38,019 nucleotides of DNA, from positions 48,874 to 86,892 of the forward strand of contig JALTLO010000019.1 of assembly GCA_027001995.1 (NCBI GenBank). The letters run 5' to 3'. The first letter of the stretch is position 1; every line of letters begins with the position of its first letter. Below are positions 3 through 33,896 of this stretch, piece by piece. This stretch comes from Planctomycetota bacterium. GTDB lineage: Bacteria; Planctomycetota; GCA-002687715; DRQF01. A model generated the notes under the pieces. The model had not been told where the DNA came from, searched no databases, and worked only from the letters and a program-made list of their open reading frames with translations. The translations under genes were made by a program, and so were the position numbers.

Positions 3-1151
3 TTTGACAATAGCCTGTTGAATCAAGACACTGGGCCGAAAAGCATAGGATGTACTCAGCAAGTTACCCCGTGCTCCAGAACGAAACATCGTCTTGAAAA
101 CCAAGGACTCGGCCTCGTTCTCCACCGCATAACCTGCCCGCGTCTTATCACCCCGGCGACCACCCCGGCCGATCCTCTGAAGCAGAGAAGCCACGTCGGG
201 CGGTGGGCCAACCAAAAGAACGTAATCCACTGTGCCGATATCTATGCCCATCTCTAAGGTCATGGTGGCAAAACAAACCGCGGCTTGAGACGTCAAAAAC
301 TGACGTTCCGTACGCTCTCTTTGCTCTCGAGAAAGAGAACCATGATGAGTGAAGATCGCCTCACGAAAGAGACTCCGGTTGCGAACACCGTTGCTTAGAT
401 TCTCACAGTCATTTCTGGAATTGCAGAAGACCAGAAGTTTGCGAAAACCGCCCCGGGCCAATTCGTTGAGATGCTCAACCAAATCTTCCTTGCCCCGGCC
501 CATGAACTCCTTGCCATGAATGCGCCGGGCCCCAGGCACCTGCACCACTTCCGCATCATGAAGGTAACGCTTAGCCAAACCGATAGGGTCATCGACCGTG
601 GCACTGGCAGCAATGATTTGAGGCCGCACTTCGCAGACATGATCAAGGCGTTTTAGCAGGATCCGAAGCTGATCTCCCCTTGGGCTGTTATCAAGGACAT
701 GGATCTCATCGAGAACGATCAGGCGTGTGTTCTTAAGTCGCTCTGGCCGTCTGGCAATGGTGGAGTCCAGGGATTCTGGAGTGGTAATAATGATCTGGGG
801 GAAGGCCCCCCCAGTCACCTCTTTGTACTCACCTGTCCGGCGACCAAAGCTAACACCGACTTGATCCATCTTTCCTTCCAAACGCCGAAAAAGATCGTTT
901 GCTAAGGCCCGCGTTGGACTCACGATCACAACAGAAGCTGACCCGCCAACCAAGGCACGGACCATCTGGGCCGCTGGCGCAGCATACGCTTCAGTTTTTC
1001 CGCTGGCCGTGGCTGAACAAAGCAAGACATCCCGTCCTTTCATGATGACGGGAATGGCCTTCTCTTGGATTTGAGTGAGTTTGCGAAACTGCCCAAAGAA
1101 GGCACGAAAAGAAAATGGAAGAAGGTCGAGAAGTTCAGAGGCCACGGACAT
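3..1151 (-). CDS. Lhr-like DEAD/DEAH-box helicase (BrxHI/SngC-like), 3' end runs off the window
   Basis: Missing from the ORF track because it has no stop in the window. Manual translation from ATG 1151 gives MSVASELLDLLPFSFRAFFGQFRKLTQIQEKAIP (Q motif), SATASGKTEA (Walker A), LIVLDEIH (motif II), ASAT (III), ATMTLEMGIDIG (V) and LLQRIGRGGRR (VI). It starts 1 nt after the upstream TAG. Confidence 0.9.
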   Translation of the reverse strand, partial: MSVASELLDLLPFSFRAFFGQFRKLTQIQEKAIPVIMKGRDVLLCSATASGKTEAYAAPAAQMVRALVGGSASVVIVSPTRALANDLFRRLEGKMDQVGVSFGRRTGEYKEVTGGAFPQIIITTPESLDSTIARRPERLKNTRLIVLDEIHVLDNSPRGDQLRILLKRLDHVCEVRPQIIAASATVDDPIGLAKRYLHDAEVVQVPGARRIHGKEFMGRGKEDLVEHLNELARGGFRKLLVFCNSRNDCENLSNGVRNRSLFREAIFTHHGSLSREQRERTERQFLTSQAAVCFATMTLEMGIDIGTVDYVLLVGPPPDVASLLQRIGRGGRRGDKTRAGYAVENEAESLVFKTMFRSGARGNLLSTSYAFRPSVLIQQAIVK

Positions 1152-1152
1152 G

Positions 1153-2601
1153 CTAAGCCTCTATGCCCAAACGGCGTTCGTCCATGAGGTAGACACATGA
1201 CCGAACAGCAGCTCGGAAATTAGCATCGTGTGCGTCCAGCCCTTCGCCACAGATTTCAACCAGATCCTCCAAGAAAGGCGCTACTTCGAAGTCTGGATAA
1301 GACACCTCATAGATGTCACCGATGCGCCGGGCAAGCTCAACCATGTCCCGCTTTCTTAGAGGGCGCAGAGCGACATCGTATTCATCAGACTCTGTGATTT
1401 CGCCGAAATGCGCTTCGATTTCTGGCAAGGGAGTCAGGGCAAAGATGACGCAAAGAGGCTGATCTTCTTGAAACTTCAGCGACAGGGCTTTGTGAACGCC
1501 CTGACCGCCCCGATAGAGTTCATGTTCGGCAGAAAAGAGCAAGTCATCTTCTGCCATCGTCACCGCCGAGAAGTGCTTCAATACTTCTAAGGCGTACCCT
1601 TGCTGTCCTTGGCTCAAGGCATCAATGCGCTCCACTTCATCAAAAAGGAGTACGAGGCCATTGGCACCAGCACCCTTGGCGAACGCTGCCAAGGTGCCAA
1701 TCATGTGGGTGTACATCCGCCCGTAGGTGCGAAAGTCCGAGAGAGTCAACGGCATTTCACCACGCCATCTCAATCGCCGTAAGATCTTTCGCAGCTCATC
1801 GCTGCCGATCTTGTCAGCATGAACATAGTCGCGAAACCAGCCAATATCTTCCTCATTGCCATGATTCAACACAAAGAGGTAGGAAGAAAAGAAACGACTA
1901 AAACAAGCCCCGTCCGCGTTGTTGAACGCTTCATTTTCAGTGAGGTCATCGAGGATAGAACCTAGCCCACCAGATGCGGCTCCAGGCATATGGATCGATT
2001 CCGCGATTCGACGATAAAGCCGGAGAGGGTGGCTAAGGGCATTCTCGGTCGGGTCTAAGGTAATTCTCGCAGTGGCAAAGCCCGCCCGCCTAGCAAGCTG
2101 CTCGGAGACATCCAACAAATGAGTCTTACCCGTGCCGTAGTCGCCCCAAATGACGCGGCAACCCTGGGTGTCATCCAGCAAAGCGGAGATCGAATCCATC
2201 TCTGTTTCTCGTCCAACTGTGTAGGCGTCGACTCCATGCTGGGGCACAACACCTAAACGCAGCGCTTCCAAAATCTGAAAGGCATCGATTTGTTTTGACT
2301 TTTCGTCGACCACCGCCGACTTCCTCTGGGAAACACGCTTCTTGCTGGTTCTCAGCCGTCGGAGAGACTTTTGGGCCGGAGTTTCGTCTTGGGGGGTTGC
2401 CGTCAATGTGCTGCCACCATTTATTGACTCTTCGACGTTCTCAAGGACGATCTCAGTCAAATCCCCTTTCTGAACGTTAAGAGGTAAACTAGGCCTCAAG
2501 TCAAATGCCACGACGATCCCGCTGCCCGCCCTCTTCTTGAGAACACGCCCTTCACCGTGCTCCGCATGGCACACCCGGTCGCCTACTGAGAACTCTAGCA
2601 T
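1153..2601 (-). CDS. BrxD/DUF2791-like P-loop ATPase with an N-terminal Tudor/SH3-like domain
   Basis: LEALRLGVVP...VGR, Walker A GDYGTGKTH and Walker B GLVLLFDEVE are typical of the BrxD/DUF2791 family. The N-terminus FSVGDRVCHAEHGEGRV resembles the CarD/UvrD C-terminal Tudor motif. Confidence 0.8.
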   Translation of the reverse strand: MLEFSVGDRVCHAEHGEGRVLKKRAGSGIVVAFDLRPSLPLNVQKGDLTEIVLENVEESINGGSTLTATPQDETPAQKSLRRLRTSKKRVSQRKSAVVDEKSKQIDAFQILEALRLGVVPQHGVDAYTVGRETEMDSISALLDDTQGCRVIWGDYGTGKTHLLDVSEQLARRAGFATARITLDPTENALSHPLRLYRRIAESIHMPGAASGGLGSILDDLTENEAFNNADGACFSRFFSSYLFVLNHGNEEDIGWFRDYVHADKIGSDELRKILRRLRWRGEMPLTLSDFRTYGRMYTHMIGTLAAFAKGAGANGLVLLFDEVERIDALSQGQQGYALEVLKHFSAVTMAEDDLLFSAEHELYRGGQGVHKALSLKFQEDQPLCVIFALTPLPEIEAHFGEITESDEYDVALRPLRKRDMVELARRIGDIYEVSYPDFEVAPFLEDLVEICGEGLDAHDANFRAAVRSCVYLMDERRLGIEA

Positions 2602-3881
2602 TAGAAGAACTCCTGTTCGCCATCGAGGGAACTAGGCTCTGACCCACCAACAGTGTCCAGCATGTTTGAAACCTCGGTTGAGCTCAGGGCGTGTTCTTCA
2701 CCAGCGGTTTGTTCCCCAAGCATGCGGATGGTGGTCTTGACGAAGTCACGTCGGCGGCCACCTTCCAACACTTGCGAGCCCAATTCATCAGCCAAGAGTT
2801 TGACGTTCGCCTTCTGCAATTCCTTGTCGAAATTGCTGTCAAAGGCGATGTCATAAATGTCCAGCAGCTTCTCGCCGAGCACACCCATGAGCTTGACTGG
2901 CCCCATAGACAAGCGTTCGAGATCGATGAGTGGCATGAGCGGGTTGTTCTGTGACATACCAGCCACAACTTTGAGCCGCTGGGCCAAGGCCGGATAATCT
3001 GGGACAACCGTGCTCATGAATTCCGGTGGTACGGCGTAGCACCAAAGAACTCCAGGCAAAGTGGCCTGGCCACATTGGTCGATCATTTGTCGAAGATTGT
3101 CGCCGATTGCCCGCCTTCGTTTTGGTGGCAAGCTCATGTTGCGGTCCATTTCGTCAAACAGCATCACCAAGCCTGGGAGCTGCAAATGAGACAGGCTTTG
3201 AACCAAGCTCTTCAAGAATCCAAAGGCATTGGTGTCCGAAAGTTGCTCCCGGATACGGAAAGGGGTGAGCTCGGAGGCTGGCACACGTGTGCCACGCAAA
3301 TAGTCAGCAAGCAAGTCCACACAATCGTAATCATCGTCCACCACCCCAGCCATGTAGCAAGACACAGCTTTGCGGAAGTTGCGGCTTTCTACCGGAGATT
3401 CTTCGAATTCTCGTCGCAGCCAGTGTTTGAAGTCAGCAGCACCAATTTCTTTGGCTCTTTGGCGGGCGATGGTTCGCAAGACCACGTCGATGCCCGGTTC
3501 TGGCTCTAAATCCAGTGATTCTGGGGGCAGCTCCAACCCCTTAGCCACTGCCTCGTAGATCTTCTCGGGCTTATCAAAGGGGCATTCTTTCGGTGAAAGA
3601 TCAACTCGTGCAGTACAGAAACCTTCTTGCCATGCGATCTCGCGCAAGCTCATTAGGAATTGCGTCTTGCCGCCGCCGAAAGTCGCTTGGATCAATTTGA
3701 AGGAGCTGTTGCGGCCCGATTCTTTCATCTGCTTGAGATATTCAATTCGCAACATCTCCAAGAGATCATTAGTAGCCACATTCACAAAAAGTGCACCCCG
3801 CTCCGGCGGTTGACCCGTCTCTCCCATACGCTGGATGATGTGCCTTGCCAATGCTGGATCAAGATCTTCGTTGTAGAGCAT
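2601..3881 (-). CDS. Second BrxD/DUF2791-like P-loop ATPase
   Basis: Walker A ATFGGGKTQ, Walker B GLVMLFDEMD, LRQMID and YPALAQRL. It overlaps both neighbours by 1 nt (TAATG and TGATG junctions). Confidence 0.8.
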   Translation of the reverse strand: MLYNEDLDPALARHIIQRMGETGQPPERGALFVNVATNDLLEMLRIEYLKQMKESGRNSSFKLIQATFGGGKTQFLMSLREIAWQEGFCTARVDLSPKECPFDKPEKIYEAVAKGLELPPESLDLEPEPGIDVVLRTIARQRAKEIGAADFKHWLRREFEESPVESRNFRKAVSCYMAGVVDDDYDCVDLLADYLRGTRVPASELTPFRIREQLSDTNAFGFLKSLVQSLSHLQLPGLVMLFDEMDRNMSLPPKRRRAIGDNLRQMIDQCGQATLPGVLWCYAVPPEFMSTVVPDYPALAQRLKVVAGMSQNNPLMPLIDLERLSMGPVKLMGVLGEKLLDIYDIAFDSNFDKELQKANVKLLADELGSQVLEGGRRRDFVKTTIRMLGEQTAGEEHALSSTEVSNMLDTVGGSEPSSLDGEQEFF

Positions 3882-4771
3882 CAGGAGTCCTCTTTGCTGA
3901 AGAATACGGTCAACTTAAATTCGCCATTGCCCTGTTCATCTTCGAAGAAAATAACCCGGCTTTTCTTCGATGCACTTGAGCCTGTGGCCACACCCAAGTT
4001 CAACCTACGATTCTTATGAACCAAGGCTTTTTCGCGGCGCAAACGCAAGACATCCCAGGCAAATTGCGCCCGGGTATAGTCCTTAAAACTCTTCTGCCGT
4101 GGATCTTTGAGAAAAGCTGGCTTCTGCCGGTGAATCGCCAAATAGGGCAAAAAGTCGACAATCTCGACTCGGTCGCTTTTGGCGCCAGTAGCAGCTCGAC
4201 AAGCCTGCCACGCGCTATAGCAATGTTCGTGAAAAACTTGAGGATCAAAGGGTGTATTGAGGACTTTCAAAGCCTCATCATAACCCGCGAGAATCGCATC
4301 ACATTCTGCCGGGACTTGCAACAGAGTCTCCTTGGCAAATTGAAGTGACGCTTTTCCTTTGTCGCGGTCAATCACGATAGCCAAGGGAGGTGTGCGCACT
4401 TCGATAGGCCCTTCCCGGCGCAAGACTCGCATGGCCAACCCTCTGGCCTTAAAAGCGTCCCCCAAGTCTTGGCCCAAACGCTCCGTGGCTTGTTTGACGC
4501 GATCCTCCAAGTGGGCCCGGATATGATCAATAATCTGGCCCCCATTGACCGCAGAAGTAAGCCCAGTCGGCACTTTCTTAGAAGCCTTCTCTACAGCTAT
4601 CAAAGCCTTCTTGACGTCTTCGTAAACCTTAGGCTTATTCAAAGGCCCTAGGACCGTAGCCATTTTCCCCAGCTCTTTCGCTGCTGCCTTCAGGGCTCCC
4701 TGCTGTATCACAACCCATTTGTGAATGGGGACAGTCTCCCCCTCTTGAACATCATTTTCCGACTGATTCAT
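3881..4771 (-). CDS. Hypothetical protein, first gene of the ATPase-ATPase-helicase operon
   Basis: 296 aa ORF whose stop overlaps the next ATG. No family motif recognised. Confidence 0.75.
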   Translation of the reverse strand: MNQSENDVQEGETVPIHKWVVIQQGALKAAAKELGKMATVLGPLNKPKVYEDVKKALIAVEKASKKVPTGLTSAVNGGQIIDHIRAHLEDRVKQATERLGQDLGDAFKARGLAMRVLRREGPIEVRTPPLAIVIDRDKGKASLQFAKETLLQVPAECDAILAGYDEALKVLNTPFDPQVFHEHCYSAWQACRAATGAKSDRVEIVDFLPYLAIHRQKPAFLKDPRQKSFKDYTRAQFAWDVLRLRREKALVHKNRRLNLGVATGSSASKKSRVIFFEDEQGNGEFKLTVFFSKEDS

Positions 4772-5131
4772 GTTTTCTTCTTTGTTGGCTTCGTTCTATT
4801 GGTCGGCATCCCTGCCACCGCCCACTGTCATTGTGAACGAGACCACAGATTTGCTCAAGATCATGAGTACAAAACGCCCAATTGCCTAACAACTGGAGGG
4901 CCAAGAATGGCATTCTATGACCAATTCGTCAACTGGGTGAACTTGACCAAGATTCGCCGATTTTCTTGATGGTTTTGGGGATAAAGAACAGGCAAATGGC
5001 GCGTCGAGAGCGGGAGAACCGCCAACGTGGCGCAAGACAGTCGGCACCAAATGGACTCACTGAATACGATGCGAGCAGCTTTTCTTGGATTGAATATGCA
5101 AAAAACGACGCCAAGAATTCCTTCGACAGTT

Positions 5132-5383
5132 TCAGGTGGCGACAGTGTGGCTAACTGTTGAAGTAGAAGAACTATCGGCAACATGGATCGTGACCGATTG
5201 CCCCGCTTCCGGTGCTTTGAAGCAGATTGTCACCGTATGTTTGGCTGGGTTATGTTTCAACTTTAGGCTAACGGCGGCCCCAGAACTCAAAGCGCGTGCG
5301 GAAAAACCAGCACCAACGCCAGAAGCCGTTATGCATACTGTAGAGCCTGGCTCCACAAAAATTGGCCCGGTGATTGAGATCAT
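5132..5383 (-). CDS. Small beta-rich two-Cys protein, cassette 1 (Ig-like fold inferred)
   Basis: 83 aa, one of five paralogues with consensus MI-x-I/L-x-G-P/S...V-E-x-G-x-x-V-C-I/L-T...NP...C-F...HTV. ATGA overlap with the upstream gene. Confidence 0.8.
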   Translation of the reverse strand: MISITGPIFVEPGSTVCITASGVGAGFSARALSSGAAVSLKLKHNPAKHTVTICFKAPEAGQSVTIHVADSSSTSTVSHTVAT

Positions 5384-5865
5384 GACGCCCTGATCGTGGC
5401 AATAAGGTCTTCGATCCGCGTGCGGAGCTTAGCATGTTTGATTGAACCCAAGGTGGATTCAATCACCCCCTGAACAGGCTTTAAGGCGACAGGGTCAATA
5501 GACTGTAGAACCCTGAGAGCTGTCAAACGCGTTTGGATAAACCGATCTTGCAAGGAGTTGCAGACCAGATCGTACAAAGCGACATGCCCTCGATCCCCAA
5601 TCCAACTCAATGCCACATTCCTCTTTTCCTCAGTTCCATTCAGCAACCTCGCAACAATCCTAGGGCGACCAGATGAAGCATAGAGAGTATCGAGAATCCC
5701 GTACTCCGCCACGAGGATTGCATCAACACTGGACAATGAGGGAGCCGTCTCAGACTCCCCAACGAAACGGTTGAGGCCGAGGGCGGTGATACCCACAATC
5801 CCAATGGCGACAGCGGTTCGACGAAAGAACTGGCGGCGCGCGATATCCACGGTTTGAACTTGCAT
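5380..5865 (-). CDS. Twin-arginine-leader HEAT-like protein, cassette 1 (leader type A)
   Basis: Start moved to MQVQTV (ATG 5865), which follows AAAGGA. ARRQFF plus a hydrophobic stretch; helical C-terminal domain with W-I...H..YDLVC..L.D and LKP. Confidence 0.8.
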   Translation of the reverse strand: MQVQTVDIARRQFFRRTAVAIGIVGITALGLNRFVGESETAPSLSSVDAILVAEYGILDTLYASSGRPRIVARLLNGTEEKRNVALSWIGDRGHVALYDLVCNSLQDRFIQTRLTALRVLQSIDPVALKPVQGVIESTLGSIKHAKLRTRIEDLIATIRAS

Positions 5866-5941
5866 AGGGATTTCCTTTCGACGGCAAACTCCAAACATAA
5901 ACATTCCAAATTACCTGACGCCGTCTTTCGCAGGGGTGGAC
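5747..5941. repeat. Type-A leader/upstream direct repeat, copy 1 (~195 bp)
   Basis: Matches 7621-7815 with about 5 substitutions counted by eye. Confidence 0.95.
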
Positions 5942-6057
5942 CATAAAATTTCGTGGAATCCGAAAAAACTCAGAGAGCCTTAGAGCCCAACGCCGACAAG
6001 GTCACGCAAGAACATATCGTGCGTTAGACTTCACTATCAAGAATAAATCTCCGGCGA

Positions 6058-6315
6058 TCAAAATCTGCTGATTACTGTATGGCTAACGCCTTTTGGCCCA
6101 CTATTATCGCCAACATGCACGATCACACCGGCACCCGCCGCAGGGGCAACAAAACAAACCGTCGCGGTACGCTTCTTGGCATTGATGATGATAGTCACCT
6201 TAACCGGAAGTCCAGACGACACCGCCGTGGCAGAAAAACCTGGGCCGACATTCGACGCGGTTATGCACACATTGGACCCTGCTTCAACGAAACTAGGGCC
6301 ATTCAACCGAATCAT
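6058..6315 (-). CDS. Small beta-rich two-Cys protein, cassette 2
   Basis: 85 aa paralogue MIRLNGPSFVEAGSNVCIT...VCF...SHTV; ATGA overlap. Confidence 0.8.
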   Translation of the reverse strand: MIRLNGPSFVEAGSNVCITASNVGPGFSATAVSSGLPVKVTIIINAKKRTATVCFVAPAAGAGVIVHVGDNSGPKGVSHTVISRF

Positions 6316-6788
6316 GACGCCTCAATCTCGACCAACAATCTGTCAACTTGCGCGCGGAACTCACGACTCTTAATTCTGTCGTTTGTTTCTCCAATCAACT
6401 GCAGATGTGGTTTCAACGCTGGATACCCGATTCTGGCTAAAACGACGAAGGCTGCCTTTTGAACTTCTTTGTGTCTTGCCCCAAGAGAAACACAGACAAG
6501 ATCATACATCGATGCATGCTTACGATCTTCAATCCATTGGAGGGTCCTAACGGCCTGTGATGGAGTCCCATTGGCAACGACAGCCTCAATCTTGGTGCGA
6601 CCAAGTGTGGCGTAAAATACATCGAGAGACCCGAAATCGGCTACGATTTCAGCCTCGATTCCGTTCGGCACAGCCGCCTTCATCTCGCCAGCAGAGTAAC
6701 GAACGCCCAAGGCAGCGATTCCAACAATTCCAGCGGCGGTCCTAGCAAAAAAGAGTCTGCGCGAGAAAAACGACCTGGGAATAGACAT
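6312..6788 (-). CDS. Twin-arginine-leader HEAT-like protein, cassette 2 (leader type B)
   Basis: SRRLFF plus a hydrophobic stretch ending MKAA; conserved WIEDRKHASMYDLVC and LKPH; AGGAG upstream. Confidence 0.8.
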   Translation of the reverse strand: MSIPRSFFSRRLFFARTAAGIVGIAALGVRYSAGEMKAAVPNGIEAEIVADFGSLDVFYATLGRTKIEAVVANGTPSQAVRTLQWIEDRKHASMYDLVCVSLGARHKEVQKAAFVVLARIGYPALKPHLQLIGETNDRIKSREFRAQVDRLLVEIEAS

Positions 6789-6887
6789 GACTGCGATAAT
6801 CTCCTGCTTTTATCTCAAACAATGTGAGCGTCTATTGTTCTTGACGTAACTTCGTGAACTTGCGGACCGGGAAATCTTTGTTCTTTG
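6671..6887. repeat. Type-B leader/upstream direct repeat, copy 1 (~217 bp)
   Basis: Matches 8565-8782 with roughly a dozen differences, including a 1-nt indel. Confidence 0.95.
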
Positions 6888-6999
6888 ACGAAAATTGTGA
6901 CAAATAGCGAATAACGTCAGCAAAATTCGGTAATTCGCTGTGAGAATTCTTGGAAAGAATGAACCCGCCAGCGAAAAATCCAAGTCACACGGGCAGACT

Positions 7000-7257
7000 C
7001 TACCGGCGTACGATCACAGTATGATTATTGGCTTCCGATTTGTTGTTGCCCGTAACATGAACGGTAACCGTGCTACCGCCCGCAGGTGCGACGAAACAAA
7101 GTACGGCTGTGTGATTTTGCGGATTGATCGTCACTTTCAACTTGACCACGGTTCCCGGTGAACTCGCAATTGCGCTAAACCCACTTCCAATGTTTGTTGC
7201 CGTAATACAAACATTGGAGCCTGCTTCCACAAAGCTTGGTCCACTTAACGGAATCAT
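7000..7257 (-). CDS. Small beta-rich two-Cys protein, cassette 3
   Basis: 85 aa paralogue MIPLSGPSFVEAGSNVCIT...LCF...NHTV; ATGA overlap. Confidence 0.8.
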   Translation of the reverse strand: MIPLSGPSFVEAGSNVCITATNIGSGFSAIASSPGTVVKLKVTINPQNHTAVLCFVAPAGGSTVTVHVTGNNKSEANNHTVIVRR

Positions 7258-7739
7258 GACGATTCTATTTCCACCAACATCCCACGAACTTCTGACAGGA
7301 GCTCCCCATCCTTAATACTGCGACTCACTGCCTCAAGCGCGGCGGCATGGGGCTTCAGAGTTACGCGGTCGAGACCATTCAGCGAAGCATATGCAACTTT
7401 CTGAATTTCTTTCCTGCCGTCACCCAAATACAAGCACAACAAGTCGTACATTGGCGCATGTCGCCGTCGGCCAATCCAAAGTAGGGTGCGAGACACTTGA
7501 GAAATCGTGCCCGTCGCCAACACCAGCTCTATCTTGGAACGACCAGCCGTCGCGTAAAAAGTGTCTAAGCGGGTGTAATCAAGGGCGATGTCTAGCTTGG
7601 CTGCATTGGTCGGGCCAGCAGTCTCAGACTCCCCAATGAAACGGTTGAGGCCGAGGGCGGTGGTACCCACAATCCCAATGGCGACGGCGGTTCGACGAAA
7701 GAACTGGCGGCGCGCGGTATCCACGGTTTGAACTTGCAT
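7254..7739 (-). CDS. Twin-arginine-leader HEAT-like protein, cassette 3 (leader type A)
   Basis: Start moved to MQVQTV (ATG 7739), which follows AAAGGA. Leader nearly identical to cassette 1; WIGRRRHAPMYDLLC and LKPH. Confidence 0.8.
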   Translation of the reverse strand: MQVQTVDTARRQFFRRTAVAIGIVGTTALGLNRFIGESETAGPTNAAKLDIALDYTRLDTFYATAGRSKIELVLATGTISQVSRTLLWIGRRRHAPMYDLLCLYLGDGRKEIQKVAYASLNGLDRVTLKPHAAALEAVSRSIKDGELLSEVRGMLVEIESS

Positions 7740-7815
7740 AGGGATTTCCTTTCGACGGCAAACTCCAAACATAAACACTCCAAATTACCTGACGCCGTCT
7801 TTCGCAGGGGTGGAC
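7621..7815. repeat. Type-A leader/upstream direct repeat, copy 2
   Basis: Matches 5747-5941 at an offset of 1874 bp. Confidence 0.95.
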
Positions 7816-7948
7816 TATGAAATCTTTAGAAATTTCTATTTTCTGCTCACATCCGACAGCCGAGCGCCCATGGATGCCAGATGGAACCCTGGGGCAAGGC
7901 TAACCAATGAAAATCTTCGGCGATCTGAGAAGCCGAGGGACTTAGCCC

Positions 7949-8203
7949 CTACAATCCAAAGACTGTATGGGTCATTCTCTCGCTGGCAGTGTTCTTCACA
8001 TGAACAGTCACAGCCCTTGCGCCCGGGGGTATAGTGAAGCAGATTTTCGCCCTGTGTTTCGCAGGATTATGGATCACCTTCAGCTTGATCCTTTGGGATC
8101 CGCTCACAGCGGCGTTTGCCGAAAAGCCCGGGCCAACTCCAGTCACCGTGAGACACACCTGGGCACCCACTTCAACGGCGGATGGGCCGCTTATTTTGAT
8201 CAT
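7949..8203 (-). CDS. Small beta-rich two-Cys protein, cassette 4
   Basis: 84 aa paralogue MIKISGPSAVEVGAQVCLT...ICF...THTV; ATGA overlap. Confidence 0.8.
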   Translation of the reverse strand: MIKISGPSAVEVGAQVCLTVTGVGPGFSANAAVSGSQRIKLKVIHNPAKHRAKICFTIPPGARAVTVHVKNTASERMTHTVFGL

Positions 8204-8682
8204 GACAATTCGACATCATTCAGCAGTCGCGTGAAGACTACTTTAAGCTCATTCCGCTTTACCCCTGGGGCAGCGGATTGAAGAATCCCTAGATGGGGCT
8301 TCAAGAGAACTGGGTCCATATTCACCAGCAAACGCAATGCAACTTCTCGCACCTTCATTCTTCCGTCTACCACCGACCTACATATCAGGTCATAGAGAGG
8401 CTTATGCCCCCGCATTTCAATCCACTCCAGGGCATAGATTTTCTTCTCAACTGTTCCGTTTTGAAGTCGTGCTTCAATCCTAGGCCGACCAAGGCTCGCA
8501 AACTGAGCATCGAGTAGCGCGAATTCAGAAGCCTCCGCTACTGCCAAGACTTGCTTGGTCGGGCCAGCCGCCTTCATCTCGCCAGCAGAGTAACGAACGC
8601 CCAAGGCGGCGATTCCAACAATTCCAGCGGCGGTCCTAGCAAAGAAGAATCTGCGCGAGAAAAACGACTTGGAAATAGACAT
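8200..8682 (-). CDS. Twin-arginine-leader HEAT-like protein, cassette 4 (leader type B)
   Basis: SRRFFF leader nearly identical to cassette 2; WIEMRGHKPLYDLIC and LKPH. Confidence 0.8.
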   Translation of the reverse strand: MSISKSFFSRRFFFARTAAGIVGIAALGVRYSAGEMKAAGPTKQVLAVAEASEFALLDAQFASLGRPRIEARLQNGTVEKKIYALEWIEMRGHKPLYDLICRSVVDGRMKVREVALRLLVNMDPVLLKPHLGILQSAAPGVKRNELKVVFTRLLNDVELS

Positions 8683-8782
8683 GGCTGCGATGATCTCCGT
8701 GCTTTTGTCTCAAACAATGTGAGCGTCTGTTGTTCTTGACGTAACTTCGTGAACTTATGGACCGGGAAATCTTTGTTCTTTG
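8565..8782. repeat. Type-B leader/upstream direct repeat, copy 2
   Basis: Matches 6671-6887 at an offset of about 1894 bp. Confidence 0.95.
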
Positions 8783-8838
8783 GGCAAAAGACAAGGAAAA
8801 AGAAGTAGCACTATCCAGACCCATAAGTCCACAAAGGA

Positions 8839-9096
8839 TCATCGGCCAAAAACGGTGTGCGTAACCTCCTCTGCCCCTGAATTATCCGAGACCACGATCG
8901 ACACGCTTTCCCCAGAAGCTGGGACGGTGAAACATACAGTAGCCGTATGAGCCGCCGGGTTGATGGCGACCTTGAGCTTGACTGCTTTCCCCTTCCGCTT
9001 GATTGCGGTTGCATTGAAACTTGCGCCAATGCCAGAAACCGTGAGACAGATCGTGGATCCAGGTTCTCCGAAATGTGAACCGCTGATCGAGATCAT
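8839..9096 (-). CDS. Small beta-rich two-Cys protein, cassette 5
   Basis: 85 aa paralogue MISISGSHFGEPGSTICLT...VCF...THTV; ATGA overlap. Confidence 0.8.
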   Translation of the reverse strand: MISISGSHFGEPGSTICLTVSGIGASFNATAIKRKGKAVKLKVAINPAAHTATVCFTVPASGESVSIVVSDNSGAEEVTHTVFGR

Positions 9097-9605
9097 GATG
9101 ATTCGACATTTCCAAGCAAGATAGCCAATTGCCGTTTGAAGTCTTGGCTCTTACATGCACCCTGAGCTTCTGAAATCAAGTTTATGTGTGGTTTCAATGC
9201 GACAGGGTCAAGGATGCTCAGGGCACTAGCAGCATAAAGCCTCACTTCCATATTCCCATCTTGAAGACAGCGACATACGAGATCGTACATGTTCGCGTGC
9301 TTGCGACGAACAATCCATTCGATGGCGGATTTCCTCCTGGCGGGGGTTCCATTGGAGATTCGTGCAGCAATACGACCTTTGCCAGAAGTTGAATAGTGAG
9401 AATCCAAGACGACAAAATCAGCCAGAATTTTGTCCTTGCCCGTCAATACGGGCACCGCAGTCTCAGACTCCCCAATGAAACGGTTGAGGCCGAGGGCGGT
9501 GATGCCTGCGATGCTGGCGGCGGCGGCTGTGCGGGTGAAGAAGCGGCGGCGACTGGCACGTTTGCGGTCAGCGATGTTCTTCTTGGCTTGGTCCGCTGCG
9601 GACAG
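9093..9605 (-). CDS. Twin-arginine-leader HEAT-like protein, cassette 5 (A-like leader; start uncertain: CTG 9605 or upstream ATG 9752/9758)
   Basis: SRRRFF...GITALGLNRFIGESETA; WIVRRKHANMYDLVC and LKPH. The in-frame CTG at 9605 follows AGAGGA-ttttcct, the same layout as AAAGGA-aatccct-ATG in cassettes 1 and 3. Confidence 0.7.
   Translation of the reverse strand: MSAADQAKKNIADRKRASRRRFFTRTAAAASIAGITALGLNRFIGESETAVPVLTGKDKILADFVVLDSHYSTSGKGRIAARISNGTPARRKSAIEWIVRRKHANMYDLVCRCLQDGNMEVRLYAASALSILDPVALKPHINLISEAQGACKSQDFKRQLAILLGNVESS
9457..9501. repeat. Partial third copy of the type-A leader repeat (45 bp)
   Basis: gcagtctcagactccccaatgaaacggttgaggccgagggcggtg is identical to 7618-7662. Confidence 0.9.
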
Positions 9606-10179
9606 AGGAAAATCCTCTGTGCCCCCGTGGACAATGGGGCCACAGAAGTAGCAATTATCAATATGGAGTTTTGTGTCCCCTGATCGATAGCCCAATTGCC
9701 ACGACTTCAGATAAATCTCACAACTAAATGGTCCTGGTGCGTTCGTTTTCATCGACATGATCTCATTGCAGAGTTCTCAAACTAACCACCTGCGGCAAAC
9801 AGGCCTGTATCAACCGCTCCATAATAGTCACCCCAAGTCGTCTGTAAAGAACTATTCCTGGACGATCTTGATCACCTTGGAAGCTCTCTGCGCCGACTCT
9901 GGCAGAAAACGCCTCACACTGAGAAAACGCGGAACAATCAGATAGATACTTGGCCATGGTCAGGCCCTGGATTAAACCCCAACGAATTCTCCTTAAACAA
10001 CAACCCCACAACAACTTAAGAATGAAGGTGGGCCCGTGGCTTCGGTGATGTCGGATTGGCCCAAAACTAGGGTTTCGGAATAATCAAAATGAAGCCGCGA
10101 TATGAGAGCTATCGAAACTCATGCAGATTTCTAAGATGCTCCCTGGGCGTCGCACACACAAATTCCACGGAGAGAGAAG

Positions 10180-12669
10180 ATGAATCGGCTCATTCTTGTT
10201 GTTGGAGTTCTTCTGTTGCTGGGGAGCGGGCTTGGATGGCTCTTCTTGGACAACCAAGACATTCAAGAAATCGGCAGCACCGGTATAGCGACGACGAGGC
10301 AAATGACAGAACCTCGAAGGGGCAAGTCCATTGTCCCAGAAATACAGGCACCACAACAAACAACAGAAGAAAAACGAGCACCCTTATCGTCAACACCCAA
10401 GAAGGAGTATGAGAACTGGTCAGATCTCAATGAGTCCAACAGCCAATTTGCTCGCATCATTGATCGCGAGACCAAAAAACCTGTTGCTGGGGCCACCCTC
10501 GCGGTTCTCGCCATCTCAAGATCAACGGACGAAAATCTCCGCAAGAAGATGCTCGAAGACATCGTCCGCTTTGCTGAGGAGAATGGCAAACTCTACCTTT
10601 CAGACGAAGCTGGCCAAGTGCGTATCCCCAAGGTCACGGCACCCACCGTCCTTACCGCAAGAAAAGACGAGAGAGTTGCGAGCAAGCAGGCCTTGGGCCG
10701 AGAAACGGATGCTCTTGTCTTAGCCATTGCACCCCGGTCTGAGATCAAAGTGAGAGTCACCACGATGGCCGGAAGACCTCTTTCAGCCATACCAACAGCA
10801 GTTTGTCTTCGGTATCGGGTCCAGGACAGGCAGAGCATTCCCCTGCTCTACGGGACTACAAACGACCGGGGAGTGGCCAAATTCAGCATCGTGCCGGGAA
10901 CCATCGAGCAGTTTCCCATGGACCAGTTCAATTTGAGGGTGGCGGCACTTGGAATTTTCAACCCACCATTAGAGCAATCCATTGAACGGGATAACCTTCC
11001 TTCAGAAGCCGTCCATCTGCGGCTTGGCCCTTTTGGCAGCATGGAAGTCAACATTCTTGACCAAGAAGGCAAGCCCTACGGGCAAAAAGTCTACGTTTCC
11101 TTCAACTTGGACACAGAAGAAAACAAACCTCTCTTCGCCAAGACCACCCAAGACGGCACCGTGAATGTTCCCATCGTGAGTTGTGGACTTGACCTCAAGA
11201 TAACAGCAATGCCTTACCCCGGGATCGACCTGAAACCTGTCAGTAGATCGGTCCAGAGTGCGACCAATCCAGGAGAGAAAAGCAGTATCACCCTGCAGTT
11301 TGGGTCCGCATGGGGCACCTTGAAAGGTCGACTGATAGATGAGGCCGGGGAGCCCATAAAGGACAGCAAGATCTTTCTCCAGGTCTTCGCCGACAAAGGC
11401 CAGGGAACACGAGGTGATTCCCACTATGTGTCCACCACTAGAACCGGCCAATTTAAGGTTCCCCTCTCCAGAGGATTCGATTCTAGGGTGTTCAAAAGAG
11501 AGATCGAAATAAGCACGGAAGCCCGCGAAAATACTCCCCCTTTAACAGTTCGCCTCCCGATGTCCTCAGAAGCACTCAAAGACGACATAGACTTAGGCAC
11601 ACTGACATTGAAAGGGCCGAGCCTATTGGCATCAGGTCACATCCGAGACCTTGCCGGCAATCCTATTGCGGGAGCTCATTTTGACATCAGAAATGGAAGG
11701 GATGAAGCGCCGGACGCCACCACCAAGAAAATCGGGCGGCTCCAATCAGACAAACGCGGGGCTTTCCAAATCTATGGCGAAACCACAGCTTCCACTTTGC
11801 ACATCAGTGCTTATGCCGCCAACCATTTCCAAGAGGGTGTCGAGGTCAAAACCGGCGCGCCCAATGTCAATATCTCCTTAAGCCGTGTCTGCAAGCTCAA
11901 AGGCCGGCTCATCATGCCAGAAGACATCGATGGCCGTTTCTTTTGGGTTCTGGCCGTCAAAGGCCAAACCCATGATGTGCAACCCGACGGACACTTCGAG
12001 CTGAGCTACTTAAAACCCGGGCCCCACAAGTTCGCTGTCCTGAGACGAGGAAAGGCTCGCCCATACGCCTTCGAAAAAGAAGTCATCTTGAAAGGCGGAG
12101 AAACCCGAGACTTAGGAGACATCCCCGTTCAAGTGTCGGGAACCAAGTTAGACATCGTGGTGAAGAGCCCCGTTTTCAAAGGACGCTACAACGGTCTTCG
12201 CATCGACCTCTTCGCACCTGGCAGCAAGAATCACTTGACATGGTTCTCCATTGACGAACAAAAGGACACCATCTTGATGCCCGCTGATGTCTGCGACATC
12301 TATGCCAGCAAAGTCGGGTTTCGAACAGAACTCTATGAGAGTGTTGCGAAAGGCGAGCTCACAATCAAACTCAAAAAAGGCATTCCTATTCGCATCCAAG
12401 TGGAGAATAAAGAAGAAATCCCCAAGGGCGGGTTCATCAACTTCGCCGCCGAAAACGCGAGCCCAATGTGGTACTACAGCCCGCGTGAAACTGCTGACGA
12501 AAAAGGCCGCATCTTCATCATGGAGCCCGGGGAACACAAGCTCAAAGCCTTCCTCAAGACCAAGATTGAGCAGAGGTTGGGCAAGGCTATTACCATCACG
12601 CCCAAGAGCATCTACGTCTTAGACAGTCACCAAGAACAGGTTTTTCAAGTGAAGATTGAGCCAAAGTAA
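10180..12669 (+). CDS. Membrane-anchored protein with repeated carboxypeptidase-regulatory-like (prealbumin-like) domains
   Basis: N-terminal hydrophobic anchor; repeated G-R-x-x-D-x-x-G-x-P-I/V-x-G-A motifs (RIIDRETKKPVAGA, GRLIDEAGEPI, GHIRDLAGNPIAGA). Confidence 0.75.
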   Translation: MNRLILVVGVLLLLGSGLGWLFLDNQDIQEIGSTGIATTRQMTEPRRGKSIVPEIQAPQQTTEEKRAPLSSTPKKEYENWSDLNESNSQFARIIDRETKKPVAGATLAVLAISRSTDENLRKKMLEDIVRFAEENGKLYLSDEAGQVRIPKVTAPTVLTARKDERVASKQALGRETDALVLAIAPRSEIKVRVTTMAGRPLSAIPTAVCLRYRVQDRQSIPLLYGTTNDRGVAKFSIVPGTIEQFPMDQFNLRVAALGIFNPPLEQSIERDNLPSEAVHLRLGPFGSMEVNILDQEGKPYGQKVYVSFNLDTEENKPLFAKTTQDGTVNVPIVSCGLDLKITAMPYPGIDLKPVSRSVQSATNPGEKSSITLQFGSAWGTLKGRLIDEAGEPIKDSKIFLQVFADKGQGTRGDSHYVSTTRTGQFKVPLSRGFDSRVFKREIEISTEARENTPPLTVRLPMSSEALKDDIDLGTLTLKGPSLLASGHIRDLAGNPIAGAHFDIRNGRDEAPDATTKKIGRLQSDKRGAFQIYGETTASTLHISAYAANHFQEGVEVKTGAPNVNISLSRVCKLKGRLIMPEDIDGRFFWVLAVKGQTHDVQPDGHFELSYLKPGPHKFAVLRRGKARPYAFEKEVILKGGETRDLGDIPVQVSGTKLDIVVKSPVFKGRYNGLRIDLFAPGSKNHLTWFSIDEQKDTILMPADVCDIYASKVGFRTELYESVAKGELTIKLKKGIPIRIQVENKEEIPKGGFINFAAENASPMWYYSPRETADEKGRIFIMEPGEHKLKAFLKTKIEQRLGKAITITPKSIYVLDSHQEQVFQVKIEPK

Positions 12670-20280: not shown

Positions 20281-23200
20281 ATGACCACTTCTTCCACCTT
20301 GGCACCATGGTGTTCTCCCAACCTAATTCGAGTTTTCTTGACGATGGCCATGATGGTTCTCCTTGCTCCCTCAGATTCTCATGCGCAAACCGGCGGACGG
20401 GTGCCGAAAGCTGAGGACATCAAGAACGGCAAAACCCACAAGCCAGCGCCGCGAGGGGCTGTGGTTAAGCGCATTGATCTGCGGCGGCACTTTCCACCAG
20501 TAGGCGAGCAATCAATGAACGATTGCTCTGCCTGGACAGCCGCAGCCATCAAGAGCTTCTTGGAGACAATTGACCAAGATTGGAAGGCTGATCAACCTCA
20601 AACTATTTTCTCGCCTAGCTTTCTCTACTCGCAAACGAACTCGGGAAAAGACAAAGGATCCAATCTCATCGCCCTTGGTCGCCTTATGGAGAAGTCCGGA
20701 GCGGCGACTCTGAAAACCAATCCTTACATCGCAAAGGACTTCAAGACTCAACCTTCCCCTTCCGCATTCAAGGAGGCAGCCCACTTCAAGAACCGAGCCA
20801 CCTACTTGCTCAAGAACAAGGAGCAAATCAAGATGGTCTTGCAGCAGAATATGCCTGTCGCACTGGGAGTACGATTGACCCCCGGATTCTTCTCAGGCCG
20901 ATTCCAGGTCTACACTCAAGAAATGCACGCCTGGGGCATGAAGCGCCGCAAGCCCAATCAACGCCACGCTCTCCATGCTATGGCGATCGTTGGCTTCGAC
21001 GATGACATCGGTGGCTTCCTCCTGAGAAACTCCTGGGGCAGTCGTTGGGGTAAAGGTGGCTATTGCTGGGTTGGCTATGACGCATTCGAAAAATTCGAGC
21101 CACAAAAGAACAGCGAAGCTTTTGTCATGTTAGCCGTTGCATTTGAAGACGAAAGGAACAAGCGGACTTTGGGCACCCAGACTGACCAAGCACCAAAGCA
21201 GCTCAAGATTCGGGTTCGAAGCGAAGCCAACGGTTATCACTTAGAGGAAAAGAAAACGCTGTATCGCTACTACGCCGAATTAGAAGGCTCCAAAGCAGCA
21301 ATACAAAGCGTAAGAGACGTCGTATGGCATGCCCCAAGCTTGGGCAACAAACTGCCGAGCAAATTGCGAACGGATGATTCGTCGAGACATTTTCAAATAT
21401 GGTCAGCCGTTCTTGGTGGGCAGCACCAGCTTGTTGCCGACCTCGTATTTCAAGACGGAAGCAAACGCACCCTCAGGCAGCCCGTGTCGTTTCACCCGCC
21501 CATAGGTCAACAAAGAAGTGTGTCCATCTCTGTGGAAGACCGCTACTGGGGTCTCATGGATACAAGCCAAGGGAACAGCAAACGCCCCCATTGGATTCGT
21601 ATCATTCACTTTCATGGATCGGTTGCGGATATCCGAAGCGTCGACCGCATCATCATCGACATCGGTGACGAGCATCAAGAAATCAATCCCATGGGGCAGA
21701 AATCGAAGCTCGCAAGGCGCGAGTTCACTGTTGAATCTCCCGAACCCATCTCCGTACGTTTCATCTTCTTCGATGGCTCAGAGACCCTCAGAAGATACGA
21801 TTCAGAGACATTCTCAGACCCGGCGAACGATCTTGTCATTCTCAAGTCAAAACTCCACAAATTTGGCGATGGAAGCCGATCGGCGTACAGACTTCACCTT
21901 CGAATCCCTGTGGGTTTGGCCAATTTCGAAGTCGACCGGGTCGTATGGCAGCTTGACGGAAGCCAAGGCCATCGCCAATTCATTGTGCGCAGCGGCCAAA
22001 ACTACCTCAACGGTTTTCAAATGACTGGTGTCGCCTCCAAGGATTTTCGGGCTCGGGCAACCATTCATTGGAAACGCAACATGCGTGAAACCATGGTGCT
22101 TGAGAAGTGGGTGGAGCTTCCTGACAAGAAGACGGCCTACGACGGTCCCCACAGAGTGGAACTCTACGGAACATCCGCCTATGCCGGTCGGAGCAAGAAC
22201 AAAGTCCCAACCTGGAATCATCAGGTCCGACTCAGTGGCGACTGGCTCACAACAAATAAGATCGAAAAGGTGACTTTCCATTGCAAGGACGAGAAGGGCA
22301 GAAAACACCTCATCGAGGGCAAGAAAGACAAACACGGTGACTTTGCCGTCGAATTCAAGGGCCTAAGTCAAACGATCACCGTGTCTGCCAAGGCAAAACT
22401 GAAGACCGTCTCTTTCGAGAAGAAAGCAACTTTCACATCACCACGGCCAGCAGTCGATGTGGCCTTTCTTGATAAGCGTCTTGCGTCAGTCACGAAATAC
22501 GTCGATGGTCATAAGGACATCACTTGGTGGACCAAGATCGGTGGTCCCATTTGGTGGGGATCGGCGCATACTGTCCAATATGTCTACCAAGCCCCATCGC
22601 TGATTCTTCCCCGAAAAAATCCCGGGGACCCAAGAGTCTACATCCCTTTCCCCCATCAATGGCAAACGACCTTGAGTTTGAAGGACGGAACGAATTCACC
22701 TCGATGGCGCTTTCAAGGGGTCGCCAAAGAACCTGGCCCGATTCAAGCACGGCTGCACTACGTGGATGGTGGTTGCCAAACGCTAATCACGAGGGTGCCA
22801 CAATCTTCGACCTCTTGGAATAACAGCCCACAGTCGGTGATAAACATTCGGGCCATTGAACGATTCACTGGAGAGTGGGGTGGCAATGCCCTATTTCGGC
22901 TAAGACTTCAAGTCGAAGGCCCCGATTCCGAAATGGCAAAATTAAGTCATGCCTTGATTCGAATTAGCGCCACCCCAACGAAATCTGACGTTCGATTCAA
23001 CAAGGATTTTCGCGCCTCTGCCACCTATGCCAGCCCTCAAGCCTTCACCGTCACCCTGGTCTTCAAAGACGGCAGTTTTGAAACAAGAACTGTCCTTGGA
23101 TCATGCCAAGCCAAACGCTTTCATGGTTTAGGAATCCAAAGGCAAAGAAATGTCATAGGAATCACCGGGCCGACGAAACTTATTAGCTCCATCAAATCTG

Positions 23201-27965: not shown

Positions 27966-28025
27966 GATGTTTCTCCTTCGGATCCAGTTTGCGGGTGTTG
28001 GTCGAATTTAGCTGAACAACACGGG

Positions 28026-30347: not shown

Positions 30348-30396
30348 GACCTGCTCCTTTTCCTTGAGCATGACCTCAAGGCGTTGCCGGTTGCCC

Positions 30397-30675
30397 TCAG
30401 GCTTCGGCGATTCTGTCTGGATCTTCTTCGAGTTCGACGGACACCGGCCAAGCTCCCCAAACACCAGGAGTAGCCTTGATGGGCCCTTCGAGAATCTCTT
30501 CGGCCCCGGCGGCGTCTTTGGTTTCGATCAGGATTCCGACGCGGTCTTGGTCGTCTAGATCGAAGGTTTCAACTCCGGGAATCTGGTTTAGTCGTTGTCT
30601 GACTTTCACGGACGCCCCAGGTTCGATGCGGGCGAAAGCGCCTACCACAGCAAGGGTTTCAATGTCTTGTCTCAT
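30397..30675 (-). CDS. napD: NapD chaperone
   Basis: ~92 aa ferredoxin-like protein (LNQIPGVE...RVGILIET) immediately upstream of napA; ATGA overlap with the preceding gene. Confidence 0.75.
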   Translation of the reverse strand: MRQDIETLAVVGAFARIEPGASVKVRQRLNQIPGVETFDLDDQDRVGILIETKDAAGAEEILEGPIKATPGVWGAWPVSVELEEDPDRIAEA

Positions 30676-31124: not shown

Positions 31125-31159
31125 TTCACAGCTCTTTCTCTCTGCTTACGTCGCTGAAA

Positions 31160-33894: not shown

Positions 33895-33896
33895 GA

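Follow-up and report, generated by a model that had tools for sequence, protein, structure and literature searches.

The window, a stretch of 38,019 nucleotides from a Planctomycetota bacterium, contains five two-gene cassettes of one protein family, all in direct orientation (Table 1), and comparison with relatives shows that their C-terminal cargos have been linked to different leaders where a hydrophobic stretch ends, including onto a full-length gene with a zinc domain. Each cassette unit is built from an N-terminal leader or anchor, a HEAT-like domain and an Ig-fold partner as its three modules, and the last two travel together as cargo. This two-gene family from a Planctomycetota lineage is undescribed: relatives were found almost only in one order of Planctomycetota, and no Pfam, NCBIfam or PADLOC model matched over its cut-off except the Tat signal. 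Every short cassette has an intact ORF and RBS and keeps its start and export motif.

Table 1. Features of the cassette locus, in window positions.
Feature	Position	Strand	Remarks
A5 full-length gene, 219 aa	9093..9752	-	zinc-motif domain, RRxF, hydrophobic stretch, linker, HEAT-like domain (AF2 pLDDT 91, fold search); alternative ATG at 9758
A5 N-terminal zinc domain (CHCC, ZAS-like)	9552..9752	-	C11-x18-H30-x3-C34-x2-C37; missing from A1-A4
45-nt stretch identical to 7618-7662	9457..9501	-	end of hydrophobic stretch and linker, A5 and A3
Cargo 5 HEAT-like domain	9093..9455	-	behind short leaders in P0003 (104/120 aa) and P0171 (119/120 aa)
B5 Ig-fold partner, 85 aa	8839..9096	-	two Cys; ATGA overlap with A5
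Leader block B, copy 2	8565..8782	-	about 100 nt upstream, GGAG RBS, 39 codons of short RR leader
A4, 160 aa	8200..8682	-	B-type short leader and cargo 4 HEAT domain; P0174 cargo 112/121 aa
B4 Ig-fold partner, 84 aa	7949..8203	-	P0186 79/84
Leader block A, copy 2	7617..7823	-	84 nt upstream, AGGA RBS, 41 codons
A3, 161 aa	7254..7739	-	A-type short leader and cargo 3 HEAT domain; P0167 full-length gene carries cargo 3
B3 Ig-fold partner, 85 aa	7000..7257	-	P0184 77/85
Leader block B, copy 1	6671..6887	-	206/217 nt identical to copy 2, one 1-nt indel
A2, 158 aa	6312..6788	-	B-type short leader and cargo 2 HEAT domain; P0179 has cargo 2 after an A-type leader
B2 Ig-fold partner, 85 aa	6058..6315	-	P0182 78/85; P0182 and P0179 contigs equal in size (1013 nt)
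Leader block A, copy 1	5743..5949	-	199/207 nt identical to copy 2
A1, 161 aa	5380..5865	-	A-type short leader and cargo 1 HEAT domain; P0178 cargo 89/120 aa
B1 Ig-fold partner, 83 aa	5132..5383	-	seven-strand beta sandwich; AF2 pLDDT 83

Leader blocks and their edge

A preliminary description of this DNA had proposed near-identical leader blocks in cassettes 1/3 and 2/4, with a period of about 1.88 kb. Both are real: the blocks are 94-97% identical (190/195 nt in the core of block A, 5747-5941 versus 7621-7815), and the copies lie 1874, 1894/1895 and 1839 nt apart. The perfect 45-bp piece reported for cassette 5 is present as well (7618-7662 versus 9457-9501, 45/45; A1 versus A5, 43/45), but cassette 5 had been read as a third short leader, and it is actually the full-length gene, whose N-terminus carries a zinc-motif domain of 67 residues. 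As claimed, identity stops at the leader end, dropping almost to the level of chance. The next 30 coding nt match at only 8/30, 11/30 and 12/30, and no more than two steps from the boundary, which is the Ala codon closing GESETA (5743, 7617, 9456) or GEMKAA (6672, 8566), 36-nt sliding windows have gone from 93-100% to 36-47%. Nearby repeats are not rare in this assembly, with 26 pairs on one and the same contig, each at least 150 nt long, at least 90% identical and less than 6 kb apart, two of them the leader blocks; the unusual feature is the position of the boundary, not the existence of repeats.

The boundary had also been taken for the probable cleavage site. Cleavage there is not supported: signal peptidase I favours small residues at -3 and -1, a rule that residues -3 to -1 (E-T-A or K-A-A), with Pro at +1/+2, fit poorly as judged by eye. 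On the same basis, signal peptidase might use G-E-S or S-A-G, which lie slightly further upstream. In a related genome (G005), the equivalent boundary comes after ...ASKYV.

Past the boundary, the mature domains and small partners are divergent, as had been described, yet they are not unrelated: the five cargos are deep paralogues of one HEAT-like domain (32-46% aa identity) with LD, W, RxH, YDL and LKP motifs in common, and identity among the partners is 45-59%. The homology of the cargos, the zinc domain of cassette 5 and the movement of the Ig partner with the cargo were absent from the preliminary description.

Exchange of cargos between leaders

The earlier proposal that leader blocks act as recombination anchors that swap cargo is supported by the contrast in synonymous divergence (leader dS 0.08 for A1/A3 and 0.09 for A2/A4; cargo dS from 1.27 to saturated, with dN/dS below 1) and by reassorted combinations in other assemblies. 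P0167 is identical to A5 at 95/99 aa up to the boundary, past which it matches cargo 3 at 100/120 aa versus 43/120 for cargo 5; in the HEAT tree, wA3 and P0167 are joined at 100/100. P0003, probably in the same related genome as P0167, combines a short leader with cargo 5, and on two other contigs P0171 combines the A1 leader with cargo 5 (identities in Table 1) and P0179 combines an A leader (39/41) with cargo 2 (117/119 aa); these reassorted proteins are known solely from protein records, co-location being read from a shared contig size of 60,730 nt, and P0171 may be chimeric through misassembly. The pattern of a constant N-terminus and a variable C-terminus recurs in three other genomes of the family: G005 has a repeat of 294 nt at 99% that ends after the hydrophobic stretch, with a cargo dS of 1.6; G007 has three mosaic cassettes (93%); and G002 has a full-length gene and a truncated copy (92 nt at 89%) with the same DTAES edge. 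No near-identical block was found in the tandem pairs on contigs C120 of G007 and C169 of G006. We regard shuffling of cargos among leaders as very probable.

With each cargo lying between two leader blocks, homologous recombination or gene conversion between like blocks (A with A, B with B, and A with A5 via the 45-nt identity) would replace, add or delete whole cargos, and homology ending at divergent cargo would keep the edge sharp. Switches between unlike leaders would need a rarer microhomology event at the junction; the A and B leader ends in the window have at most 8 nt in common, and A3 and A4 have 14 nt in common across the junction.

An alternative is that a 1.9-kb unit of two cassettes was recently duplicated and that the mature parts then came under strong diversifying selection. 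This would fit the A-B-A-B period of 1874-1895 nt and the observation that strains differ more in the cargo (74-93% aa) than in the flanking gene (280/296). However, cargos 1/3 and 2/4 are not mutual closest relatives (32% and 34% aa), and non-coding DNA outside the blocks has diverged too. Because downstream synonymous sites are saturated (dS >1.2, versus 0.08-0.09 in the leaders), with dN/dS below 1, duplication followed by positive selection is ruled out, and we give hardly any weight to the strong diversifying selection that had been offered as an explanation. This account is refuted for the array as a whole; individual sites within cargos may be under positive selection.

Collapse or chimera at the repeats is a concern in a short-read assembly, and Logan contigs do end within each block and leave the window's 45-nt repeat unphased. 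Nevertheless, the unique segments are all covered with 0 differences (depth 9-14 in run X1), pieces continue from each cargo into its own block, block copies differ at 4-6% of sites, and the pattern is seen again in the three other genomes, making an artefact highly improbable. We see a similarly slim chance for a dedicated diversifier at the locus (a DGR, shufflon or integron). The junction is sharp and repeated, and one attC-like pair (GTCTAAC ... GTTGGGC) follows B2, but cargo mismatches show no adenine bias of the kind expected for a DGR, contig C19 has no reverse transcriptase or tyrosine recombinase (PF00589) matches, all cassettes are in direct orientation, cargo 3 differs at only 4/593 nt in run X3, and the junctions have no conserved site beyond a few bases.

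The HEAT-Ig cargo and its probable export

Each HEAT-like domain is followed by a gene for a signal-less Ig-fold partner; no signal peptide was seen in B5. A2 matches HEAT_2 under the cut-off (E 0.008), and a fold search with B1 finds a filamin Ig domain (Z 9.7, rmsd 2.0, 75 aligned). The B proteins are small and basic, with two Cys. Among nine genus-level cassettes, HEAT identity is correlated with B identity (Mantel r 0.64, p 0.0005) but not with leader identity (r -0.08); with the five window cassettes alone the HEAT-B correlation is not significant (p 0.10). P0025 is an A-B fusion protein. Structure prediction gave weak support for a HEAT5-B5 complex (score 0.54 versus 0.00 for the best control), with at least 33% of contacts agreeing between runs and a partner pLDDT of at least 77, using our own alignments as input. 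The mark for this score was reached by 116/157 solved pairs and 2/215 mismatched pairs, and the pairs reaching it with scores of at most 0.60 comprise only 18 solved pairs but both mismatches.

The RR pair is invariant in 46/46 family rows, with F at +2 in at least 90%; a moderately hydrophobic stretch follows RRxF and TatC is present in the genome, together the signature of a Tat substrate. TIGR01409 matches 10 of the 46 rows at E up to 0.1, three over cut-off, and none of the five A proteins of the window. The internal twin-arginine motif would insert the protein via Tat as in FecR, moving the folded HEAT-Ig pair outward, and we consider HEAT-Ig pairing and Tat co-export fairly probable. The E. 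coli sigma regulator FecR, as described in PMC12036975, has its internal twin-arginine after a cytoplasmic domain (R79-R80; R68-R69 here) and provides a precedent for Tat co-export of a signal-less folded piece. In contrast to FecR, no TonB receptor or FecI neighbour is present here, the hitchhiker would be a separate gene, and the cassette proteins have no sequence match to FecR families.

Output of the full-length protein

A5 carries the ZAS motif as defined in PMC2893595, His-x3-Cys-x2-Cys with an upstream zinc ligand, and C11, H30, C34 and C37 are invariant in 11/11 rows; the full motif is present in 29/46 family rows and lacking in 17/46. The N-terminal helices of the AF2 model (11-19, 26-33, 37-42, 52-91) have an order that fits the ASD three-helix bundle, the fold-search rows being filled by the HEAT domain. 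For zf-HC2 (PF13490), no cassette gene is among the 12 matches over cut-off in the genome and none of 11 N-terminal domains exceeds it; hhalign against the genome's own zf-HC2 domains gave a weak match (probability 14.5, E 0.002). The Cys-His spacing is 18, compared with 25 in RsrA and 21 in DdvA, and NF052375 'anti-sigma' matches cover only the basic and hydrophobic stretch, far below cut-off. Most zf-HC2 genes of the genome adjoin a sigma gene, unlike A5: the nearest sigma match on the window's contig is 28 kb away, contigs C99 and C105 have none, and none of 50 neighbouring ORFs picked from related loci encodes a sigma factor. The zinc domain is the part most conserved between genomes (73-90% aa versus 28-42% for HEAT; A5, C99, G001 and C156 of G002), as expected for a fixed cytoplasmic partner.

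The full-length protein may be a sensor anchored in the membrane and organised like a ZAS anti-sigma factor, with the zinc three-helix bundle in the cytoplasm. Ligand binding to the HEAT-Ig pair outside would release an ECF sigma factor encoded elsewhere, and the short cassettes would be translatable exported copies without the signalling domain as well as a reservoir of alternative specificities. The chances of an anti-sigma output are about even. As the best explanation overall, we lean towards a membrane sensor with a recombinationally swappable receptor; the complete version, an anti-sigma factor whose receptor, a Tat-co-exported HEAT-Ig heterodimer, is replaced through recombination with a neighbouring cassette bank, is tentative. 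DdvA, a transmembrane ZAS anti-sigma factor of Myxococcus xanthus, is described in PMC11506125 with a CHCC zinc three-helix N-terminus (ligands C6, H28, C32 and C35, paralleling A5 in ligands and helix layout), one membrane span and a periplasmic helical-repeat domain, a layout like the one predicted here. It is also linked there to a defence island, and a BrxD/SngB-BrxHI/SngC cluster adjoins our locus. Our locus differs from DdvA in its outer domain, a 120-aa HEAT fold that lacks CHAT and is exchanged among cassettes, in the presence of an Ig partner and in having no adjacent sigma gene.

The same shuffling might serve another output, receptor-ligand or kin-recognition cassettes, by a logic comparable to Rap-Phr-like or IdsD/E-like systems. 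Each Ig protein would be exported as an identity signal or adhesin to which the cognate HEAT domain binds; the zinc domain would be structural or address something other than a sigma factor. HEAT-B co-variation, the small basic B proteins with two Cys, the intact short cassettes, the many relatives without a zinc motif and the lack of an adjacent sigma gene all agree with this reading, but the strong conservation of the zinc domain counts against it, and we think it unlikely.

Still less probable is a polymorphic toxin that is Tat-exported, acquires new C-termini from orphan cassettes and has B as its immunity protein. The layout resembles mafB/mafB-CT/mafI (PMC4287609) and rhs main/orphan loci (PMC3967940) as described there: a full-length gene comes first, followed by N-terminally truncated copies, each with its small cognate gene, and C-terminal modules recombine onto the main gene, a swap that is seen here too. 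However, every swapped C-terminus here is a paralogue of one HEAT-like fold, with no catalytic or toxin family matches, rather than one of diverse toxins; the partner is Ig-fold, the constant part combines an anchor with a predicted cytoplasmic zinc domain, and the short copies retain start, RBS and export motif, unlike an Rhs orphan. PMC3482391 names HEAT repeats among immunity proteins and reports that Ig domains had not been found there, which also argues against a toxin.

Antigenic variation offers a further parallel. In pilE/pilS and vlsE, a main locus draws variable segments by gene conversion from nearby copies via shared flanks, and here too one main locus is fed by neighbouring copies. 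The donors in our case are intact translatable genes, whole domains and a second gene move, and the changes are known from comparison between strains rather than within a clone.

Weapons and surface antigens are known to vary by swapping cassettes onto a constant N-terminus. At this locus, a non-catalytic binding pair is exchanged, and the part that stays constant resembles a transcriptional switch; the zinc-finger copy, probably a signalling switch, could change its sensed target via swapped outer modules. If this is true, the five HEAT-Ig pairs would form a naturally occurring collection of small, orthogonal binding pairs, and the locus would add a further non-redox case of Tat hitchhiking. 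The bacterium would then rewire by recombination what a sigma factor responds to, applying the orphan-cassette logic of toxin loci to signal input, and strains would gain a sensor that is both heritable and reprogrammable, perhaps one that detects molecules of phages or competitors.

Constant leaders and divergent cargos

The array consists of five two-gene cassettes in head-to-tail order, in each of which an ATGA overlap joins the first gene (A1-A5) to the second (B1-B5). A5 is full length, with an N-terminal zinc-motif domain; in A1-A4 a short start that has an RBS of its own takes the place of this domain. The leader repeats reported in the preliminary description were confirmed: block A (cassettes 1 and 3) is identical at 190/195 nt (199/207 when extended), block B (cassettes 2 and 4) at 206/217 nt, and A3 and A5 share a piece identical at 45/45 nt. 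The sharp edge was borne out as well, since identity stops at the Ala codon that closes GESETA or GEMKAA and the following 30 nt match at only 8-12/30 positions. The mature parts, described as highly divergent, are indeed so, but they are paralogues (32-46% identical) rather than unrelated cargo.

Features in and around the array
Feature	Position	Strand
Defence-like cluster immediately downstream of the five cassettes: an unknown of 296 aa, two BrxD/SngB-like ATPases, BrxHI/SngC-like helicase	3-4771	-
Five-cassette array	5132-9752	-
Block A upstream pairing stretches	5873-5918 and 7747-7792	-
Imperfect hairpin after B2	5985-6030	-
Second A5-like N-terminus in run X1	9559-9755	
1233-aa protein, N-terminal papain-family peptidase domain, ~950 aa without Pfam match	20281-23982	+
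Respiratory cluster: multiheme cytochromes, 4Fe-4S protein, NrfD, Tat-exported molybdopterin oxidoreductase, YwiC-like protein	27234-36286	-
Sigma-70 region 2 match at contig end, 28 kb from the array	37823-38005	+

It had been proposed that the cargo might be under strong diversifying selection, which would here follow duplication of a 1.9-kb unit. Leader dS is 0.08 (A1/A3) and 0.09 (A2/A4), whereas cargo dS ranges from 1.27 to saturated in all ten pairs and that of the B genes is 2.25 or saturated. Moreover, cargo pairs 1/3 and 2/4 are no closer than other pairs, the intergenic DNA has diverged outside the leader blocks, and dN/dS is below 1. The saturated cargo dS, the lack of special closeness within these pairs and the intergenic divergence exclude a recent duplication followed by selection; the cargos had diverged long before the leaders were copied or recombined.

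An Rfam search of 4700-10200 gave 0 matches at E up to 1, and none of eight upstream and intergenic stretches folded into a clear structure (z +1.5 to -1.7). Scans found 8 promoter sites (3.9 expected) and 7 terminator sites (5.8 expected), none recurring in the blocks. Upstream in block A, GACGGC can pair with GCCGTC directly before the RBS, with a folding energy not better than that of shuffles. The hairpin after B2, of which no counterpart was seen behind the other B genes, is bounded by GTCTAAC and GTTGGGC, which we take to resemble short attC ends. A sixth, decayed cassette considered at 4770-5130 was rejected, as the HMM gave no match.

Reassorted relatives and the proposed exchange

Ten database proteins, including an orthologue (280/296) of the flanking 296-aa gene, are each recorded at NCBI from a contig of 60,730 nt; given this shared length and the flanking orthologue, we infer a single contig, syntenic and from a related strain. 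P0167 has the A5 N-terminus (95/99 aa up to the boundary) and then cargo 3 (100/120), and P0003 has cargo 5 behind a short leader (104/120); the inferred contig also holds relatives of cargo 1 and cargo 4 and two more short forms. On short ENA contigs, P0171 joins an A leader to cargo 5 and could be a graph chimera. P0179 joins an A leader to cargo 2, with a B2 relative on an equally long contig, and is hard to explain in this way because, within the window, no more than 8 nt are common to the ends of the A and B leaders. All of these forms are known from proteins alone.

We also self-compared 20 related loci for near-identical N-terminal blocks between family copies. G005 has a 294-nt block at 99% that ends after the hydrophobic stretch, with a cargo dS of 1.6; G007 (C297) has three cassettes at 93% with mosaic edges; and in G002 (C156) a full-length gene and a truncated copy at the contig end share 92 nt at 89%, with the same edge. 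The block in G003 (C134) is weak (177 nt at 78%), and none was found in the tandem pairs of G007 (C120) and G006 (C169). Internally deleted and fused family forms occur on G006 C209: at L076 3290-5034, a zinc-domain gene without the hydrophobic stretch and most of HEAT precedes a B gene, which is followed by a short-leader gene with an in-frame fusion to a B-like domain.

Contig pieces from sequencing run X1 cover all unique array segments with 0 differences, so these segments exist. The pieces break inside the leader blocks and leave the 45-nt repeat of A3 and A5 unphased; one extra break, at 5003-5021, falls where the genome has no repeat. Depth in X1 is ~9 in cassettes 4-5, 11 in the flanks and 12-14 in cassettes 1-3, a difference within noise. 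In run X3, a single low-depth contig (257 nt, depth 3.3) joins 9496 to 5009, skipping 4486 nt and with them the array body; a short near-match lies at the joint. The second A5-like N-terminus in X1 (depth 3.5-4.8) differs at 10 or more positions and has loose ends, and a leader in X3 is a variant of that of A5, differing at 18 of 164 nt.

The dS contrast and the reassorted relatives support the original suggestion that the leader blocks are recombination anchors that swap cargo, and recombinational shuffling of leaders and cargos is well supported. Since each cargo is flanked by two leader blocks, crossovers in like blocks would exchange, add or delete HEAT and Ig as a unit. Cargo divergence would halt the recombination tract at the constant edge, and joins of unlike leaders would depend on microhomology; across the leader/cargo junction, 14 nt are common to A3 and A4. 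Neither a reverse transcriptase nor a tyrosine recombinase was found on the array's contig, and the cargo mismatches show no adenine bias.

HEAT and B identities correlate across 9 genus-level cassettes, a set without the outgroup pair C105 and G002 C157 (r 0.64, p 0.0005; p 0.10 for the five window cassettes alone), and leader and HEAT identities do not (r -0.08). P0025 is an A-B fusion protein. The predicted HEAT5-B5 complex scores 0.54 (runs 0.01, 0.54 and 0.88) versus 0.00 for the best control, a weak pass of a mark reached by 116/157 solved and 2/215 mismatched pairs; of the pairs that reached it, only 18 solved ones and both mismatches had scores up to 0.60. Contacts agree to at least 33%, and partner pLDDT is at least 77.

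Distribution and neighbourhood

The family was detected in 13/23 genomes of the order, among them all 8 other members of the source's own family, and in 14/401 genomes drawn from the phylum, with only 7 candidates scored per genome. All named relatives are titled Planctomycetota MAGs; no relative was found among phages, plasmids, viral contigs or JGI metagenome contigs. Pfam, NCBIfam and PADLOC gave no family over cut-off, except that a few relatives matched the Tat signal model; A5, B5 and A1 were all unmatched in PADLOC. The family appears undescribed, as no paper listed in literature searches of a library with few subscription journals seemed to report it. In G016 (L078 652-2319, C127), three distant HEAT relatives stand in tandem; their N-terminus is hydrophobic, the zinc motif is missing and a B partner was not detected.

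In G002 (L028), the same defence-like cluster lies beside a family gene, on the other side and in opposite orientation. Copies in other genera (L025, L026, L030, L032) are often near AbiEi/AbiEii-like pairs, SNF2 helicases, an HTH-bearing DUF6036 nucleotidyltransferase or an IrrE-like regulator.

Protein anatomy and function

The AF2 model of A5, built from 46 rows, has a pLDDT of 91. Residues 103-219 match alpha-solenoid HEAT/ARM proteins with a best Z of 11.2 (rmsd 4.0, 116 aligned), which helical repeats often reach. B is a seven-strand Ig-like sandwich (model pLDDT 83) matching a filamin domain (Z 9.7, rmsd 2.0, 75 aligned); the window copies have two Cys, and no N-terminal signal was seen. 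Foldseek searches of PDB (A and B) and BFVD (A) returned nothing at E 0.001. As leads only, ESM Atlas gave a first match of 0.84 for A5(1-95), to a cluster in which 18% of members carry zf-HC2, and 0.82 to unnamed clusters for B5.

The boundary had also been taken as the probable cleavage site. By the signal peptidase rule, this is not supported: position -3 is Glu or Lys, with Pro at +1 or +2, and G005 has the identical edge position after ASKYV.

The first 67 residues of A5 bear C11-x18-H30-x3-C34-x2-C37, a motif shared by C99 and C105, the two single copies that the genome has outside the array, and present in 29/46 family rows; the zinc domain is the best-conserved part between genomes. 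RR is kept in 46/46 rows, with F two places on in at least 90%, and the source genome encodes TatC. For FecR, both an internal RR and Tat-dependent co-export of a piece that has no signal have been shown (PMC12036975).

DdvA, with zinc ligands C6, H28, C32 and C35, has a zinc three-helix domain, membrane span and outer helical repeat in an order that the predicted layout of A5 would match (PMC11506125). Several results speak against an anti-sigma role. The Cys-His spacing of A5 is shorter than that of RsrA (PMC2893595), the zinc domain gives no zf-HC2 hit, and its profile match to the genome's own zf-HC2 domains is weak. No sigma gene was found among 50 chosen neighbours of related loci or near the three own loci; the genome encodes roughly 40 sigma factors. 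The best PDB sequence hit of the zinc-domain profile is at chance level (E 0.12), and an anti-sigma domain is absent from the VIA rows, which cover A5 residues 103-219 only.

Rhs and MafB orphan cassettes have a locus layout like this array (PMC3967940; PMC4287609). However, the toxin domain that defines those systems was not found here, and HEAT is listed among immunity folds (PMC3482391). A5 would resemble an anti-sigma factor in layout, as a candidate member of that class at most. The function of the array is probably sensory.
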